Origin: Escherichia coli
Lineage (GTDB): Bacteria > Pseudomonadota > Gammaproteobacteria > Enterobacterales > Enterobacteriaceae
NCBI RefSeq assembly: GCF_048403405.1
Contig: NZ_CP183129.1
DNA length: 64,000 bases
Direction: 5' to 3' (one strand)
In this document: positions 4,181 to 61,526 of the stretch, piece by piece
How the letters are laid out: each line of letters starts with the position of its first letter
How positions within the stretch are numbered: position 1 is the stretch's first letter
Notes under the pieces: model-generated
Told to the model about the DNA's origin: nothing
The model's input: the letters and a program-made list of their open reading frames with translations, nothing else
The model's database searches: none
Made by a program: the position numbers and the translations under genes

Positions 4181-5293
4181 ATGACGGATAATCCGAATAA
4201 AAAAACATTCTGGGATAAAGTCCATCTCGATCCCACAATGCTGCTGATCTTACTGGCATTGCTGGTTTACAGCGCCCTGGTTATCTGGAGCGCCAGCGGT
4301 CAGGATATTGGCATGATGGAGCGTAAAATCGGCCAAATCGCGATGGGTCTGGTCATCATGGTGGTGATGGCGCAAATTCCTCCACGCGTTTATGAAGGCT
4401 GGGCCCCCTATCTCTATATCATCTGTATTATTTTGCTGGTGGCGGTAGATGCTTTCGGTGCCATCTCTAAAGGCGCTCAACGCTGGCTGGACCTCGGTAT
4501 TGTTCGTTTTCAGCCGTCGGAAATTGCCAAAATAGCCGTACCACTGATGGTTGCGCGCTTTATCAACCGCGACGTTTGCCCGCCATCGTTGAAGAACACA
4601 GGCATCGCGCTAGTGCTGATATTTATGCCCACGCTGCTGGTGGCTGCACAGCCTGACCTGGGGACATCAATCCTCGTTGCGCTTTCCGGTCTGTTTGTAC
4701 TGTTCCTCTCTGGCCTTAGCTGGCGTCTGATTGGCGTCGCAGTAGTGCTGGTAGCGGCGTTCATTCCGATTCTGTGGTTCTTCCTGATGCATGATTACCA
4801 GCGCCAGCGCGTAATGATGCTCCTGGACCCGGAATCAGACCCACTCGGCGCGGGCTATCACATTATTCAGTCTAAAATTGCTATTGGCTCCGGCGGATTA
4901 CGCGGCAAAGGCTGGCTGCATGGCACTCAGTCACAACTTGAATTTCTCCCCGAACGCCATACCGACTTTATCTTCGCGGTACTGGCGGAAGAGCTGGGAT
5001 TAGTGGGCATTTTGATTCTGCTCGCTCTCTACATTCTGCTGATCATGCGCGGGCTGTGGATAGCCGCCAGAGCGCAAACCACCTTTGGTCGCGTCATGGC
5101 TGGCGGCTTAATGCTGATATTATTCGTTTATGTCTTCGTAAATATTGGTATGGTAAGCGGTATTCTGCCGGTTGTAGGGGTTCCGCTCCCACTGGTCAGT
5201 TATGGAGGATCGGCGCTAATTGTGCTGATGGCTGGGTTCGGGATTGTAATGTCAATCCACACCCACAGGAAAATGTTGTCGAAAAGCGTGTAA
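4181..5293 (+). CDS. mrdB: Peptidoglycan glycosyltransferase RodA (SEDS family)
   Basis: 370-aa polytopic membrane ORF immediately after mrdA. Confidence 0.95.
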
Positions 5294-5303
5294 GAGGTGC
5301 GCA

Positions 5304-6392
5304 ATGCGTAAGCAGTGGCTCGGGATCTGCATCGCGGCAGGAATGCTCGCGGCATGTACAAGCGATGATGGTCAGCAACAGACGGTAAGTGTACCGCAGC
5401 CTGCGGTATGTAACGGCCCCATAGTTGAAATTAGCGGGGCGGACCCGCGTTTCGAACCACTGAACGCGACGGCAAATCAGGATTACCAGCGCGACGGTAA
5501 AAGCTACAAAATCGTGCAGGATCCGTCTCGATTTAGCCAGGCGGGACTGGCGGCAATCTATGATGCCGAACCCGGCAGTAACCTGACGGCCTCTGGCGAA
5601 GCATTCGATCCGACACAGCTGACAGCGGCCCATCCAACGCTTCCGATCCCCAGCTACGCCAGAATCACTAACCTGGCTAACGGGCGAATGATCGTGGTGC
5701 GCATTAATGATCGCGGTCCTTACGGCAACGACCGCGTTATTTCGCTTTCTCGCGCGGCAGCTGACCGTCTTAACACGTCAAACAACACCAAAGTTCGTAT
5801 CGATCCGATTATTGTCGCCCAGGATGGTTCGCTTTCTGGTCCTGGTATGGCCTGTACCACAGTTGCCAAACAGACTTACGCCCTGCCTGCACCTCCCGAT
5901 TTAAGCGGCGGCGCGGGAACAAATTCAGTGTCTGGCCCGCAGGGTGACATTCTTCCGGTCAGTAATTCGACGCTAAAAAGCGAAGATCCGACCGGCGCGC
6001 CGGTAACCAGCAGCGGTTTCCTCGGCGCACCAACGACCTTAGCGCCTGGTGTTCTGGAAGGCAGCGAACCAACACCTGCACCACAGCCCGTTGTTACAGC
6101 TCCGGCGACAACGCCTGCAACCACGCCTGCAATGGTGACACCGCAAGCCACCTCGCAAAGCGCCAGCGGCAACTTTATGGTGCAAGTCGGAGCCGTTAGC
6201 GATCAGGCTCGTGCGCAACAGTACCAACAGCAACTGGGACAGAAGTTCGGCGTCCCCGGTCGCGTAACTCAAAATGGCGCAGTCTGGCGGATCCAGCTTG
6301 GCCCATTCGCCAGCAAAGCCGAAGCCAGTACCTTGCAGCAACGTTTGCAAACCGAAGCCCAATTACAGTCATTTATTACCACCGCGCAGTAG
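5304..6392 (+). CDS. rlpA: Rare lipoprotein A, septal lytic transglycosylase with SPOR domain
   Basis: 362-aa ORF; lipoprotein signal (LAAC), Pro/Thr/Ala-rich linker, C-terminal SPOR-like segment. Confidence 0.9.
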   Translation: MRKQWLGICIAAGMLAACTSDDGQQQTVSVPQPAVCNGPIVEISGADPRFEPLNATANQDYQRDGKSYKIVQDPSRFSQAGLAAIYDAEPGSNLTASGEAFDPTQLTAAHPTLPIPSYARITNLANGRMIVVRINDRGPYGNDRVISLSRAAADRLNTSNNTKVRIDPIIVAQDGSLSGPGMACTTVAKQTYALPAPPDLSGGAGTNSVSGPQGDILPVSNSTLKSEDPTGAPVTSSGFLGAPTTLAPGVLEGSEPTPAPQPVVTAPATTPATTPAMVTPQATSQSASGNFMVQVGAVSDQARAQQYQQQLGQKFGVPGRVTQNGAVWRIQLGPFASKAEASTLQQRLQTEAQLQSFITTAQ

Positions 6393-6531
6393 CGTAAAGC
6401 AGGCATCTGATGTGTCAATTTCTGTAAATGACGTTAACAAAGTCACGCGGAAAGTCAGATGCCTGCCGGTAGTGCATTTGCTATAGTAGGGCACTTTTTT
6501 TAATTCCATCACGGATGTCGTAGTTCAGACC

Positions 6532-7743
6532 ATGAATACCATTTTTTCCGCTCGTATCATGAAGCGCCTGGCGCTCACCACGGCTCTTTGCACAGCCTTT
6601 ATCTCTGCTGCACATGCCGATGACCTGAATATTAAAACTATGATCCCGGGTGTACCGCAGATCGATGCGGAGTCCTACATCCTGATTGACTATAACTCCG
6701 GCAAAGTGCTCGCCGAACAGAACGCAGATGTCCGCCGCGATCCTGCCAGCCTGACCAAAATGATGACCAGTTACGTTATCGGCCAGGCAATGAAAGCCGG
6801 TAAATTTAAAGAAACTGATTTAGTCACCATCGGTAACGACGCATGGGCTACCGGTAACCCGGTGTTTAAAGGTTCTTCGCTGATGTTCCTCAAACCGGGC
6901 ATGCAGGTTCCGGTTTCTCAGCTGATCCGCGGTATTAACCTGCAATCGGGTAACGATGCTTGTGTCGCCATGGCCGATTTTGCCGCTGGTAGCCAGGACG
7001 CTTTTGTTGGCTTGATGAACAGCTACGTTAACGCACTGGGACTGAAAAATACCCACTTCCAGACGGTACATGGTCTGGATGCTGATGGTCAGTACAGCTC
7101 CGCGCGAGATATGGCGCTGATCGGCCAGGCGTTGATCCGTGACGTACCGAATGAATACTCGATCTATAAAGAAAAAGAATTTACGTTTAACGGTATTCGC
7201 CAGCTGAACCGTAACGGTCTGTTATGGGATAACAGCCTGAATGTCGACGGCATCAAAACCGGACACACTGACAAAGCAGGTTACAACCTTGTTGCTTCTG
7301 CGACTGAAGGCCAGATGCGCTTGATCTCTGCGGTGATGGGCGGACGTACTTTTAAAGGCCGTGAAGCCGAAAGTAAAAAACTGCTGACCTGGGGCTTCCG
7401 TTTCTTCGAAACCGTTAACCCACTGAAAGTAGGTAAAGAGTTCGCCTCTGAACCGGTTTGGTTTGGTGATTCTGATCGCGCTTCGTTAGGTGTTGATAAA
7501 GACGTGTATCTGACCATTCCGCGTGGCCGCATGAAAGATCTGAAAGCCAGCTATGTGCTGAACAGCAGTGAATTGCATGCGCCGCTGCAAAAGAATCAGG
7601 TCGTCGGTACTATCAACTTCCAGCTTGATGGCAAAACGATCGAACAACGCCCGCTGGTTGTGCTGCAAGAAATCCCGGAAGGCAACTTCTTCGGCAAAAT
7701 CATTGATTACATTAAATTAATGTTCCATCACTGGTTTGGTTAA
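6532..7743 (+). CDS. dacA: D-alanyl-D-alanine carboxypeptidase PBP5
   Basis: 403-aa ORF with signal peptide and SxxK/SGN/KTG-type PBP motifs. Confidence 0.95.
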
Positions 7744-7852
7744 AAATCGAACACTTGAAAGTGTAATTTCCGTCCCCATATACTAAGCATCAGTAAAAAA
7801 CTCCCGCCTTCTGGCGGGAGTTGCTATTTAATTACGTTACGCCGGAGCTGAC

Positions 7853-11274: not shown

Positions 11275-11307
11275 TAAAAAACCCGCTTTTTGAAGCGGGT
11301 TTTTTTG
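11275..11307. terminator. Bidirectional rho-independent terminator between lipA and tatE
   Basis: AAAAAACCCGCTTTTTGAAGCGGGTTTTTTT: GC stem flanked by A-run and T-run. Confidence 0.8.
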
Positions 11308-12946: not shown

Positions 12947-12952
12947 AGACCA

Positions 12953-12980
12953 AAAAAAACCCGCTGATTAAGCGGGTTTT
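12953..12980. terminator. Bidirectional terminator between crcB and cspE
   Basis: AAAAAAAACCCGCTGATTAAGCGGGTTTT hairpin between convergent genes. Confidence 0.8.
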
Positions 12981-12999
12981 GAATTCTTGCTGACGTATC

Positions 13000-13209
13000 T
13001 TACAGAGCGATTACGTTTGCAGCAGAAGGGCCTTTGGCACCGTTAGTGATTTCGAACTCTACGCGCTGACCTTCAGCAAGAGTTTTAAAACCATTAGTCT
13101 GGATTGCAGAGAAGTGTACGAACACGTCTTTGCTGCCGTCTTCCGGAGTAATGAAACCGAATCCTTTGGACTCATTAAACCACTTAACGTTACCTTTAAT
13201 CTTAGACAT
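13000..13209 (-). CDS. cspE: Cold-shock-domain protein CspE
   Basis: 69-aa CSD protein ([20 protein letters not shown]...); ORF-track N-terminal extension rejected. Confidence 0.95.
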
Positions 13210-13383
13210 CAAAATTACCTTTACATGAAAAATAGACACAAATGCTGTGTCGGTTACCAGTACACCAATTGTGGTACGCTTTGTCCAGTGCAACTTTACT
13301 AAAAAGTGATAAAAGTCGCGTTATTTTTGATGTTACTTATTTTAGTTATTGATTTTAAAGAAGTTACTAAAACTTCATTTGTC

Positions 13384-13944
13384 TCAAAACTGAAAGCGCA
13401 TCCAGGCAAAGTACACATTGCCATTGTTGTAGGTACCCGGAATGTAGGTCATCTGAAAAGTCACTGGGCCATAACCCACGGAGGCCAATGGCAGTAGAAC
13501 CGGGAGAGGGATGTAATTCCAGTTATCGCGTGCCGTTACGCCAGCGGTGAATCCCAGACCTAAATGAAAATTTTCATCCGCCAGCGGTCGCCAGGTACTT
13601 TCCCATCCGTATCCGGCAATCGGTTCCCATTTGTTCCACGAGTCCTTAAATGCCATGGCATACAGGCCATGCCAGTTTCCTTTTTCATCCCAACGCGACT
13701 GACCAAAACCGCCACCCCACGGTCGCTCGTTATAGCGATCGGTTTTTTCTTTGTCGTAAGCGAAACGTGCATGCCAGGTGATGGCAGGAATATATAAATC
13801 ATAATGTTCAGGCTGTTGCCAGGTTTGTGCAATATTTTCTCTAAACGTTGTCATCCACTCATCTGCGTTAGCAAAAACTTTACCAACGCTGATTAACTGA
13901 ATAAAAACAAAGGAAAAGATAGCGACATATTGACTCACGTTCAT
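13384..13944 (-). CDS. pagP: Lipid A palmitoyltransferase PagP
   Basis: 186 aa from MNVS...; outer-membrane beta-barrel acyltransferase; 8-codon ORF-track extension rejected. Confidence 0.9.
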
Positions 13945-26303: not shown

Positions 26304-26449
26304 TCCTCTGATTTACAAAACACGCTAATTCGTCTTCCATAAACCATGACGATTAAGATTTATACATAATGCGCTACATTGAGGAATTCCCTGAATGTGA
26401 CGCAAATCACTTCAAAGAGTGAGCAACAGTCAGTATCATCATGTGAGTT

Positions 26450-26484
26450 AAACCCTCGCCGCCTGACGGTGAGGGTTTTCTTTT
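26450..26484 (+). terminator. Rho-independent terminator after rna
   Basis: AAACCCTCGCCGCCTGACGGTGAGGGTTTTCTTTT. Confidence 0.8.
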
Positions 26485-26532
26485 GGGTATGTTTATCTGC
26501 GACACTCGCAGTACCGACGACATGGAGTAAAA

Positions 26533-30147: not shown

Positions 30148-30518
30148 CTATACTTCCTCCGTGTTTTCGATGAGATGTAAGGTAACCAATTTTTGCCGAT
30201 TCGGCTAATGCGTTTCCATTATCAAATCGATAAGTTTTACCTTACAACCTTCGTAAGACAACTTTGTGAACTTTGCACCGCCAGCGGCGATAAAAAGTAA
30301 AATGGCCCCCTTTCCAGGTGACCGTGTAATCTGAACTACCCTTTGGTATCTTCAGCGCCTGCCTGCAGGCTGAGGTGTTGCCCTTACAAATGCAACAACG
30401 ACATGGATTACAACACCCTCATAAACAAAGGGCAATCACCTGATCTAAGCTCTTACCTATGACAGTGATAGGTTATGCCTTTTACCCGACTTTTGCACTG
30501 ACTGAAAAGGACAAATTA
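30148..30518. promoter_or_regulatory. Divergent ahpC / dsbG promoter region, expected to carry OxyR-dependent control
   Basis: 371-bp intergenic region between divergent genes; contains palindrome CCTATGACAGTGATAGG about 60 bp upstream of dsbG; exact OxyR site not resolved. Confidence 0.45.
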
Positions 30519-31265: not shown

Positions 31266-31472
31266 AAGATAATTCATGGATGGTTGAAATATATCCCTGT
31301 TTTTCAACCATCCTAAAAAAGCATGAATTGCTCGCTCTGCCCTAAGTGGCTGTGCTATTTTAGAAAAACTTAACTCTGAGTTAAGCAAAAAAACATAATA
31401 CAAATAAATACAACAGCAACATTATTGAACAAATGAATGATTTATAGAAGAGATAATATAACGGAGTATGTT

Positions 31473-50740: not shown

Positions 50741-50778
50741 AATAAAAAACCCATAATTATTTTCTGTAATTATGGGTT
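50741..50778 (-). terminator. Rho-independent terminator after entF (minus strand)
   Basis: AACCCATAATTA...TAATTATGGGTT hairpin, with A-run on plus strand giving a T-run on the transcript. Confidence 0.7.
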
Positions 50779-50794
50779 TATAGATAATGTTAAT

Positions 50795-58618: not shown

Positions 58619-58716
58619 GCCGGATGCGGCGTGAACGCCTTATCCGGCCTACAAAAATCTTGCCAATTCAATATATTGCAGGACCACGTAGGCCTGATAA
58701 GCGTAGCGCATCAGGC
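58619..58716. repeat. REP / BIME element (two inverted REP units) in fepA-entD spacer
   Basis: GCCGGATGCGGCGTGAACGCCTTATCCGGCCTAC and inverted GTAGGCCTGATAAGCGTAGCGCATCAGGC. Confidence 0.7.
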
Positions 58717-60597: not shown

Positions 60598-61115
60598 TTT
60601 TTCGTGGGATGAGCTAAGGCTTTCAGCTTTTTTAGATACATAAGCCGCGTTTCAAGAAATCGAACTTGCCTTTCAAGATCCTCAATGCGTCGGTCTTTTG
60701 ACAGCTCCAATGCTGATGCCGCTTTTTCTGGATCAACTGATATTGCAATGTTTCTTTTGGTGCCAATCTTGAGCGCGCGTAAACCAGCTTCTCCGCGCTC
60801 TTCATAGACCTTCAGCCACCTGGCTACAGAACCACTACCAGCAAGCATAAAGTGAGCAGCAGCCTGATTAAGGGACATGTGCTGCTCGATCACAGCTTTC
60901 ACGACCTTAATACGCAACTCTGGATCAGCACTAACGCCTTTAGGTTTGGGAATTAAACCTTTTTCTCCATGTTTTTCATAGAGGGCAACCCATGTCCTGA
61001 CCTGGGTTCGGGGGACACCAAAACGTGCCGAGATGATCCTGTAACCATCATCAGTTGTGAAGTAGTGATTCACGACTTCAAGGCGCTTTTCAAAAGGGTA
61101 TTTTGGCTTTGACAT
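60594..61115 (-). CDS. insJ: IS150 orfA protein (HTH DNA-binding, InsJ)
   Basis: 173-aa ORF ending ...ALAHPTKK. Confidence 0.9.
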   Translation of the reverse strand: MSKPKYPFEKRLEVVNHYFTTDDGYRIISARFGVPRTQVRTWVALYEKHGEKGLIPKPKGVSADPELRIKVVKAVIEQHMSLNQAAAHFMLAGSGSVARWLKVYEERGEAGLRALKIGTKRNIAISVDPEKAASALELSKDRRIEDLERQVRFLETRLMYLKKLKALAHPTKK

Positions 61116-61526
61116 ATTAGGGGCTATTCCATTTCATCGTCCAACAAAATGGGTGCAGTACAGGGTTGATAGAAATATCTCCTGGGGCTTCATCTTTCCA
61201 GACCTCAGAGTAAACCTGAAACCGGAAAGCTTCAGGCACCCGCCGTTATCTTACCCTTCCTCAGCAAAATAGCTGTTTATTTATACAGTGAGTCCTGTTT
61301 CGGACTTCTCACTCCTAATTTGATCAACTGAAGCTGAACCCGTTTTTTTCTGCATGCCTCAATCGTCAAAATTCTTCGCCACCAGCCAGCTCTGCCATAA
61401 CTTGTCACATTGCAAAAGTAGCCAAATTGCTTCAGTCACCATCACCAAAAAAAAGAAACATTCCAGAACTTCCGCATCTCGCCCAGCCGCTCCGACTTCT
61501 ATACTGAATAGAAAACGCCAACATAA

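Follow-up and report, generated by a model that had tools for sequence, protein, structure and literature searches.

Intercistronic stabilizer hairpins, including REP elements, lie between co-transcribed genes, as at malE-malF, and shield the upstream segment from 3' exonucleases. Stable stem-loops that lack a U tract have further been described at precise steady-state 3' ends, where they shield transcripts from PNPase and RNase II (Dar and Sorek 2018, PMC6061677). The element considered here, an RNA hairpin in the 3' UTR of rlpA within an Escherichia coli chromosome segment of 64,000 nucleotides (the window, in what follows), is of a known and fairly ordinary kind, and it is conserved and experimentally supported. 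Specifically, it resembles the U-less class of Dar and Sorek in being stable, in lying downstream of a stop codon, in the precise, abundant 3' end that follows its stem within a few nucleotides, and in the reduced uridine content after that stem. It departs from the class in being much larger than a typical member (12-13 bp closing a 44-nt structured interior) and in that its 3' arm doubles as the -35 element of the next promoter; nor is a Rho region called near the site or a C-over-G skew found downstream of it. Like the malE-malF type of stabilizer, it stands between co-transcribed genes, where it would protect the upstream segment and allow the two segments to differ in stability; unlike REP elements, it is single-copy, unrelated to them in sequence, and conserved by covariation at one locus, with no dispersed family. 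We found no individual description or annotation of it in Rfam, in RefSeq or in the literature searched, and a search for literature linking rlpA with sRNAs, ProQ or RIL-seq returned nothing relevant.

The gene order, from the open reading frame list and from BLAST and RefSeq, is mrdB-rlpA-dacA-ybeD, with lipB also present; rlpA is the last gene of the mrdAB-rlpA cell-wall operon, and the spacer between rlpA and dacA measures 139 nt. Within that spacer, the sole difference between K-12 and the window is one T in a T run. K-12 coordinates were converted through this alignment (w = 670494 minus the K-12 minus-strand coordinate), a relation that holds upstream of the T run only. The features of the locus, in window coordinates, are these:

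4181-5293: mrdB coding sequence
5304-6392, plus strand: rlpA coding sequence, the upstream gene, with the hairpin in its 3' UTR (open reading frame list, and RefSeq under the BLAST matches)
6390-6392: rlpA stop codon, TAG
6393, minus strand: weak antisense RNA 3' end, K-12 664101(+), 6 nt past the hairpin on the opposite strand, with the tail UUUACG
6399-6411, plus strand: left (5') arm of the outer stem, 12 perfect pairs plus U.G at 6411; varies between genera
6412-6453, plus strand: hairpin interior, with a 7-nt bulge and inner and apical helices in the MFE structure
6423-6428 (TGTAAA) and 6434-6441 (TTAACAAA): conserved DNA motifs in the hairpin interior, at -70 to -52 of the dacA promoter
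6454-6466, plus strand: right (3') arm of the outer stem, overlapping the dacA -35 region; its core GATGCC is nearly invariant
6459-6464, plus strand: putative -35 hexamer ATGCCT, 17 nt upstream of the -10 element and inside the right arm, its position derived from the mapped start
6476-6477, plus strand: RNA 3' ends of transcripts from rlpA, between the stem (10-11 nt away) and the -10 element
6479-6487, plus strand: extended -10 element TGcTATAGT of the dacA promoter
6493, plus strand: dacA transcription start, from SMRT-Cappable-seq (Yan et al. 2018, PMC6131387)
6495-6501, plus strand: T7 run (T6 in K-12), at +3 to +9 of the dacA 5' UTR and not a terminator tail
6532-7743, plus strand: dacA (PBP5) coding sequence, the downstream gene

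The inverted repeat from which the analysis started is real and exceptional in its setting. Its arms, GCAGGCATCTGA (6399-6410) and TCAGATGCCTGC (6455-6466), are complementary at 12 of 12 positions across 44 nt, and the left arm begins 6 nt past the rlpA stop, which confirms an earlier note on this DNA that had reported a 12-bp inverted repeat with such a gap just after rlpA. That note had also thought a chance match unlikely, a judgment borne out here, as dinucleotide-preserving shuffles of the 139-nt spacer gave a perfect 12-mer inverted repeat in 0 of 5000 cases. Across the whole window, perfect repeats of at least 12 bp with loops of up to 60 occur at four loci, against 0.25 expected. The others, all with short loops, are only those at 11276-11305, 31278-31313 and 50747-50779; the one at 11276-11305 (AAAAACCCGCTT...AAGCGGGTTTTTTT) is a textbook bidirectional terminator, and the remaining two are AT-rich hairpins between A and T runs. 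The rlpA element itself is single-copy within the window and, in 5424 of 5426 complete E. coli genomes, is confined to a single place, even under sensitive blastn. Its arms are invariant within the species, and the one variant that was inspected alters a loop base and is uninformative. No target-site duplication was found at the repeat flanks, and no RNA gene is annotated under the element in K-12 or other RefSeq genomes. Rfam gave no match at the hairpin locus when the whole window was scanned at the gathering threshold, and a permissive scan of 5800-7200 returned just one chance microRNA match (E = 3.5). Elsewhere in the window, five Rfam matches reached the gathering score, all of them to known families:

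12952-13394, minus strand: cspA-type thermoregulator 5' UTR
26379-26487, plus strand: rnk leader
30292-30385, minus strand: STnc70
58654-58695, plus strand: ES036
61086-61241, minus strand: sok antitoxin RNA

Among the options raised in the earlier note was a structured RNA element, and an in silico fold of the sense strand, the check proposed there, indeed returned a stable hairpin. In the sense-strand RNA, the repeat closes a 68-nt irregular hairpin with a dG of -32.4 kcal/mol (z -5.9), and none of 200 shuffles folded as well. The outer stem (12-13 bp, 58% GC) comprises 13 pairs in RNA, 6399-6411 with 6454-6466, when U6411.G6454 is included; within it are an inner helix of 7 bp (6419-6425 with 6447-6453) and an apical helix of 4 bp (6429-6432/6442-6445) that carries a 9-nt loop. 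The antisense strand folds at -28.5 kcal/mol.

The outer stem is maintained across relatives by compensatory change, as emerged from a DacA-based scan that used one genome per species and yielded 80 Enterobacterales loci. The stem test itself was applied to 12 pairs in a sequence-only MAFFT alignment of 48 distinct Enterobacteriaceae and Erwiniaceae sequences, in which 83.2% of stem cells are paired, compared with 28.6-36.8% after the partner has been shifted by 1-3 columns. Both sides have changed in 7 of the 12 pairs (53 cells), and the observed covariation score was reached by 0 of 500 column shuffles. One pair appears as U-A in 23 sequences, C-G in 20 and U.G in 3, with the wobble intermediate visible within Kosakonia. 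Swapping left and right arms between species costs 4.3 kcal/mol on average where the right arms differ, and 83% of such swaps are worse. Further, the MFE fold pairs the -35 region within a hairpin of 63-92 nt in all 48 sequences (mean dG -29.4). As read from the alignment, base pairs kept by compensatory substitutions in this way show a conserved cis-acting RNA structure, and the excess of G.U over A.C in the inner nine pairs (31 versus 8) points to the sense-strand RNA as the form under selection. Hence, the conservation check envisaged in the earlier note found the arms kept by covariation over these 48 sequences, and the structured RNA that it listed as one option is well supported by the covariation, by the preference for G.U over A.C and by the 3' end mapped below.

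The two arms do not share the burden of this change equally. The right-arm core GATGCC is near-invariant, and it is the left arm that changes to match, as can be seen from the left and right arms of Enterobacter (TATCCGA / TCGGATG), Phytobacter (GGCACCTGA / TCAGGTGCC), Mangrovibacter (CTGGCACCAG / CTGGTGCCAG) and Erwinia (CCGGCATCC / GGATGCCGG); the element is found at the same position in dozens of genera. The most conserved sequences of the spacer are TTTGCTATAGT, GGCAC with the T run, and CACGGATGTCGT. The inner helices, in contrast to the outer stem, are not conserved in register, and the sequence conservation of the interior is therefore probably exerted at the level of DNA, upstream of a promoter. 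Loci from Rahnella, Hafnia and relatives (L067, L069, L072, L073, L075) and from Yersinia (L059) carry a canonical GC-rich hairpin and T run after rlpA, for example GGGGCTGCGGCCCCGTTT. In the MFE structure of Rahnella an extra short stem pairs the -35 region (AGTCAG...CTGACT), whereas Hafnia and Yersinia are without it, which suggests that terminator function and the -35-pairing stem can be separable. A metagenome-assembled genome (Enterobacterales bin_230, L058) has a spacer of 348 nt upstream of dacA, with about 210 bp apparently inserted between TTTGTTATA and TATAGTAAGGCAC, into the -10 element; the insert resembles a small insertion element whose end restored the -10.

The near-invariance of the right arm finds its counterpart in the dacA promoter. 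The dacA start maps to K-12 664001(-), listed for b0632 and for b0632|b0631|b0630 (Yan et al. 2018, PMC6131387), which lies 6 nt past TATAGT and 27 nt past the hairpin stem. Since the dacA mRNA starts 27 nt past the stem, the hairpin belongs to transcripts leaving rlpA. Among Enterobacterales, TATAGT is present at 64 of 65 loci and its TG extension also at 64 of 65, and in about 55 of the 65 scorable loci RTGYCN lies upstream of TATAGT at a constant distance of 17 nt; the extended -10 element is nearly invariant from Escherichia to Yersinia, Serratia and Erwinia. A consensus promoter and terminator scan reported nothing at the hairpin site; the dacA promoter falls below its threshold because it combines an extended -10 with a weak -35. 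The earlier note had placed the repeat ahead of the dacA promoter region, and in this it was mistaken, for the right arm overlaps the -35 hexamer of that promoter. One DNA stretch thus holds two codes, the dacA -35 element and the 3' arm of a hairpin at the end of the upstream mRNA. Because the right-arm DNA is the dacA -35 region, the right arm would be fixed by promoter function, with the left arm evolving so as to remain complementary. This dual use, with a free arm that co-evolves, is the distinctive point of the element.

Several other properties of the dacA region deserve mention in their own right. The T7 run begins 2 nt after the mapped dacA start, and a run of 5-8 T is conserved one base after the start A6493. 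UTP-sensitive reiterative transcription takes place at promoters such as pyrBI, codBA and upp, which a homopolymer this near the dacA start resembles. In the dacA 5' UTR (6511-6531), the highly conserved CACGGATGTCGT stands about 20 nt before the ATG, and the UTR has no Shine-Dalgarno sequence at the usual distance. The SELEX consensus for CsrA is RUACARGGAUGU, to which the CACGGATGTCGT motif bears a resemblance, and the right arm and -35 region hold a similar word, CRGATGYC. An alternative pairing between the left arm and the conserved 5' UTR motif CGGAUGUC found no support (-12.5 against -24.8 kcal/mol for the native pairing, with 9.4% of shuffles equal). Within the hairpin interior, TGTAAA and TTAACAAA together make GTAAA-N5-TTAAC, conserved as sequence and not as RNA structure. 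GTAAA is a CpxR-type half-site, which the first half of this motif fits, and from its sequence and position the pair could be an activator site or an UP element. Beyond the gene, the dacA terminator at 7801-7829 is formed by CTCCCGCC-TTCT-GGCGGGAG followed by TTGCTATTT. The SMRT-Cappable-seq transcript end at 662669, labelled 'novel TTS' (Yan et al. 2018, PMC6131387), converts to about 7826, 6 nt past the stem of that terminator.

Published 3'-end maps place an abundant RNA end just after the hairpin. Supplementary file 1 of Adams et al. 2021 (PMC7815308) lists a Term-seq 3' end at 664018(-), with 91,306 reads in LB at OD 0.4, and in its second sheet one at 664017(-), with 41,794 reads, both classed as 'orphan'. 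We took the second sheet to be LB OD 2.0, inferred from its position in the file. The 3' end was read as position 51 of the sequence string in those tables, which was checked with the SgrS end at 77593, the last U of the terminator U tract. The annotated end of the SgrS gene presumably agrees with this 77593. In the window, the two rlpA ends are the adjacent positions 6476 and 6477, and because dacA starts at 6493 they belong to upstream transcripts. The Term-seq comparison put forward in the earlier note therefore revealed an abundant end 10-11 nt past the stem. The read count at 664018(-) exceeds that of the ybeD terminator (73,288), and so high a count hints that a fragment accumulates on its own, in addition to an mRNA end. 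Supplementary file 3 of Adams et al. 2021 (PMC7815308) retains the 664017 end. Under the filter stated there, a dRNA-seq start should then lie 21-200 nt upstream, at about 6277-6456 of the window, in the condition inferred to be LB OD 2.0, and such a start would allow a short independent transcript ending at the hairpin. Supplementary file 2 (Adams et al. 2021, PMC7815308) contains no Rho-termination region near 664,0xx. The 100 nt downstream hold 21 C and 21 G, without C-over-G skew, and the strong dacA promoter, which starts 17 nt downstream, would mask any read-through signal. On the opposite strand, 664101(+) occurs three times in supplementary file 1 of Adams et al. 2021 (PMC7815308), with read counts of 1,166 and 1,788 seen, which suggests that it was recovered in all three growth conditions. 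No Term-seq 3' end is reported at the T7 run, 6495-6501 (Adams et al.). A second hairpin, at 6471-6494, precedes that run and is weak (-8.1 kcal/mol). As the real rlpA terminator, this hairpin and T7 were rejected, given its weakness, a register that is not conserved, the lack of a 3' end there and the position of the T run past the dacA start.

Transcripts also pass through the hairpin. For rlpA, the SMRT-Cappable-seq data list a single operon context, the primary transcript b0633|b0632|b0631, whose start at 665332 lies inside mrdB and which runs on through the hairpin; no primary transcript ending at the hairpin is listed (Yan et al. 2018, PMC6131387). The absence of a primary end there fits processing, and would also fit a short RNA beyond the capture of the method. 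The tail after the stem, CGGUAGUG, has 2 U in 8 nt, and the mean across the 48 species is 2.5 U in 8 nt. The statement in the earlier note that no T run follows the repeat holds for the immediate flank (tail CGGTAGTGCA) and fails further on, with T7 at 6495-6501, 29 nt downstream. Its view that the repeat is not a classic intrinsic terminator is upheld by the missing U tract, the 44-nt loop and the read-through transcripts. Of its suggestion of an RNase processing site, the part that found support, from published Term-seq, is a link to 3' end formation or processing.

One potential explanation for these observations, and a serious rival to the one we favor, is a leaky terminator, either a non-canonical intrinsic or a factor-assisted one, that would release most polymerases coming from rlpA at -17/-16 of the dacA promoter and so insulate that promoter from occlusion. 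We regard it as possible, if on balance unlikely. The precise, abundant 3' end near a strong hairpin speaks for it, as do the position of that hairpin exactly over the promoter that would be protected and the lack of a Rho region called nearby; further, the UUUACG and weak 3' end 6 nt later on the opposite strand are as seen at bidirectional terminators. To this extent, with a GC-containing stem after the stop, a nearby 3' end and weak bidirectional behavior, the hairpin does resemble canonical intrinsic terminators. However, none of the short-loop GC stem, the U tract and the 3' end within that tract at 7-9 nt that mark such terminators was found. E. coli and its relatives alike lack a U tract. 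The 3' end, for which +7 to +9 is usual, falls at +10/+11, and the hybrid there (GGUAGUGCA) is no weak one. With 44 nt between its arms, the stem would fold slowly beside terminator loops of 3-8 nt, the consensus terminator scan detects nothing at the site, and rlpA-dacA-ybeD read-through molecules, which document passage through the hairpin, are the sole rlpA-containing primary transcripts in SMRT-Cappable-seq. A small stable RNA, released from the rlpA 3' UTR by processing or transcribed from a promoter late in rlpA and acting, for instance, through ProQ binding or as a sponge, appears improbable. It would account for a Term-seq count far above what one expects where a weakly expressed operon ends, for the retention of 664017 in supplementary file 3 with the start site 21-200 nt upstream that this implies, and for the conservation of the hairpin, and in its conserved structure at an mRNA end, discrete 3' end and high read counts the RNA is like the 3' UTR-derived sRNAs CpxQ, SdhX and NarS. 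Unlike these, it has no evident conserved seed, known partner or annotation, and neither the U tail of 6 or more nor the conserved single-stranded seed of Hfq-dependent sRNAs is present. Further, Rfam gives no match, no RNA gene is annotated in K-12 or other RefSeq genomes, the consensus scan found no promoter-like site upstream, and no target or seed region is evident, the conserved single-stranded parts being explained by the promoter. The dRNA-seq data set behind the filter reportedly comprises roughly 15,000 candidate start sites. With a total of that size, a start site is expected within any 180-nt stretch about a quarter of the time.

Explanations at the level of DNA fare worse against the strand and the pattern of substitution. 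That the arms are half-sites for a looping regulator of dacA, or that a cruciform hides the -35 element, draws on the membership of the right arm in the promoter, the separation of the arms by about 5.3 helical turns and the conserved DNA motifs between them, and yet we consider it very improbable. Complementarity is kept while the sequence changes, the imbalance of G.U (31) over A.C (8) is relevant only for single-stranded sense RNA, and the stem is directly followed by a mapped RNA 3' end. By established DNA energetics, cruciform extrusion is strongly disfavored with a loop of 44 nt. The earlier note's protein-binding palindrome does not survive either, given that the arms co-vary, that the wobble pairs are strand-specific and that the half-sites are 56 bp apart center to center; palindromic protein sites have the same sequence in both half-sites at close spacing, and this arrangement is not found here. 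Nor is there the near-continuous duplex of about 20 bp, cleaved within the stem, of an RNase III hairpin: the rlpA hairpin has helices of 13, 7 and 4 bp, with a 7-nt bulge and an internal loop breaking the duplex, and the mapped ends lie outside the stem. To the terminal repeats of a mobile element, a REP-type repeat or a chance match we give next to no credence, as only the shape, two 12-bp inverted ends around a short segment, recommends them; neither the dispersed copies nor the target-site duplication of REP, BIME and MITE elements was found. There is one copy in the window and one place in 5424 of 5426 genomes, and the same position is occupied in dozens of genera, with 0 of 5000 shuffles giving such a repeat. 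Copy number and synteny refute the mobile-element and REP reading.

Because a precise end after a stable stem, with no U tract, is what the class of Dar and Sorek displays (the stem is stable, the ends at 6476 and 6477 are adjacent, and uridine is low), we consider it probable, by analogy with that class, that the hairpin is a leaky stem-loop by which the end of the rlpA 3' UTR is set and shielded. The structure, its covariation and strand, the 3' end, the dacA start and the read-through are all shown; the barrier to nucleases and the stabilizing effect are what we infer. The hairpin would form in transcripts running out of rlpA, and would mark and protect the discrete, abundant 3' end 10-11 nt past the stem. 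That end most likely does not come from classic intrinsic termination, because the U tract is missing and full-length read-through transcripts spanning rlpA-dacA-ybeD are known. Instead, read-through or downstream-terminated RNA would probably be cut in the single-stranded AU-rich GCA/UUUGCUAUAG, or, alternatively, 3'-to-5' exonucleases would probably trim the RNA back until the stable stem stops them. By either route, the rlpA mRNA would acquire a defined, nuclease-resistant end, uncoupled from dacA. The extra -35-pairing stem beside a canonical terminator in Rahnella is not explained by such a protective role alone.

The protective stem-loop, as we understand it, explains an abundant 'orphan' 3' end in the published E. 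coli Term-seq atlas. A more ambitious idea, that the element couples two cell-wall units through an accumulating, trans-acting hairpin RNA of about 85-100 nt or through regulated read-through, is a long shot; the considerations behind it are that the 3' arm is the dacA -35, that the left arm tracks its changes and that the read count is above that of the ybeD terminator. If regulated read-through were true, it would set the share of dacA that is expressed from polycistronic mRNA as against mRNA from its own promoter. The hairpin also sets the true border that separates the elongasome operon, mrdAB-rlpA, from dacA, which encodes PBP5. Seemingly 'clean' deletions or insertions made after the rlpA stop remove the left arm, and its loss may alter the stability of rlpA mRNA or read-through into dacA.
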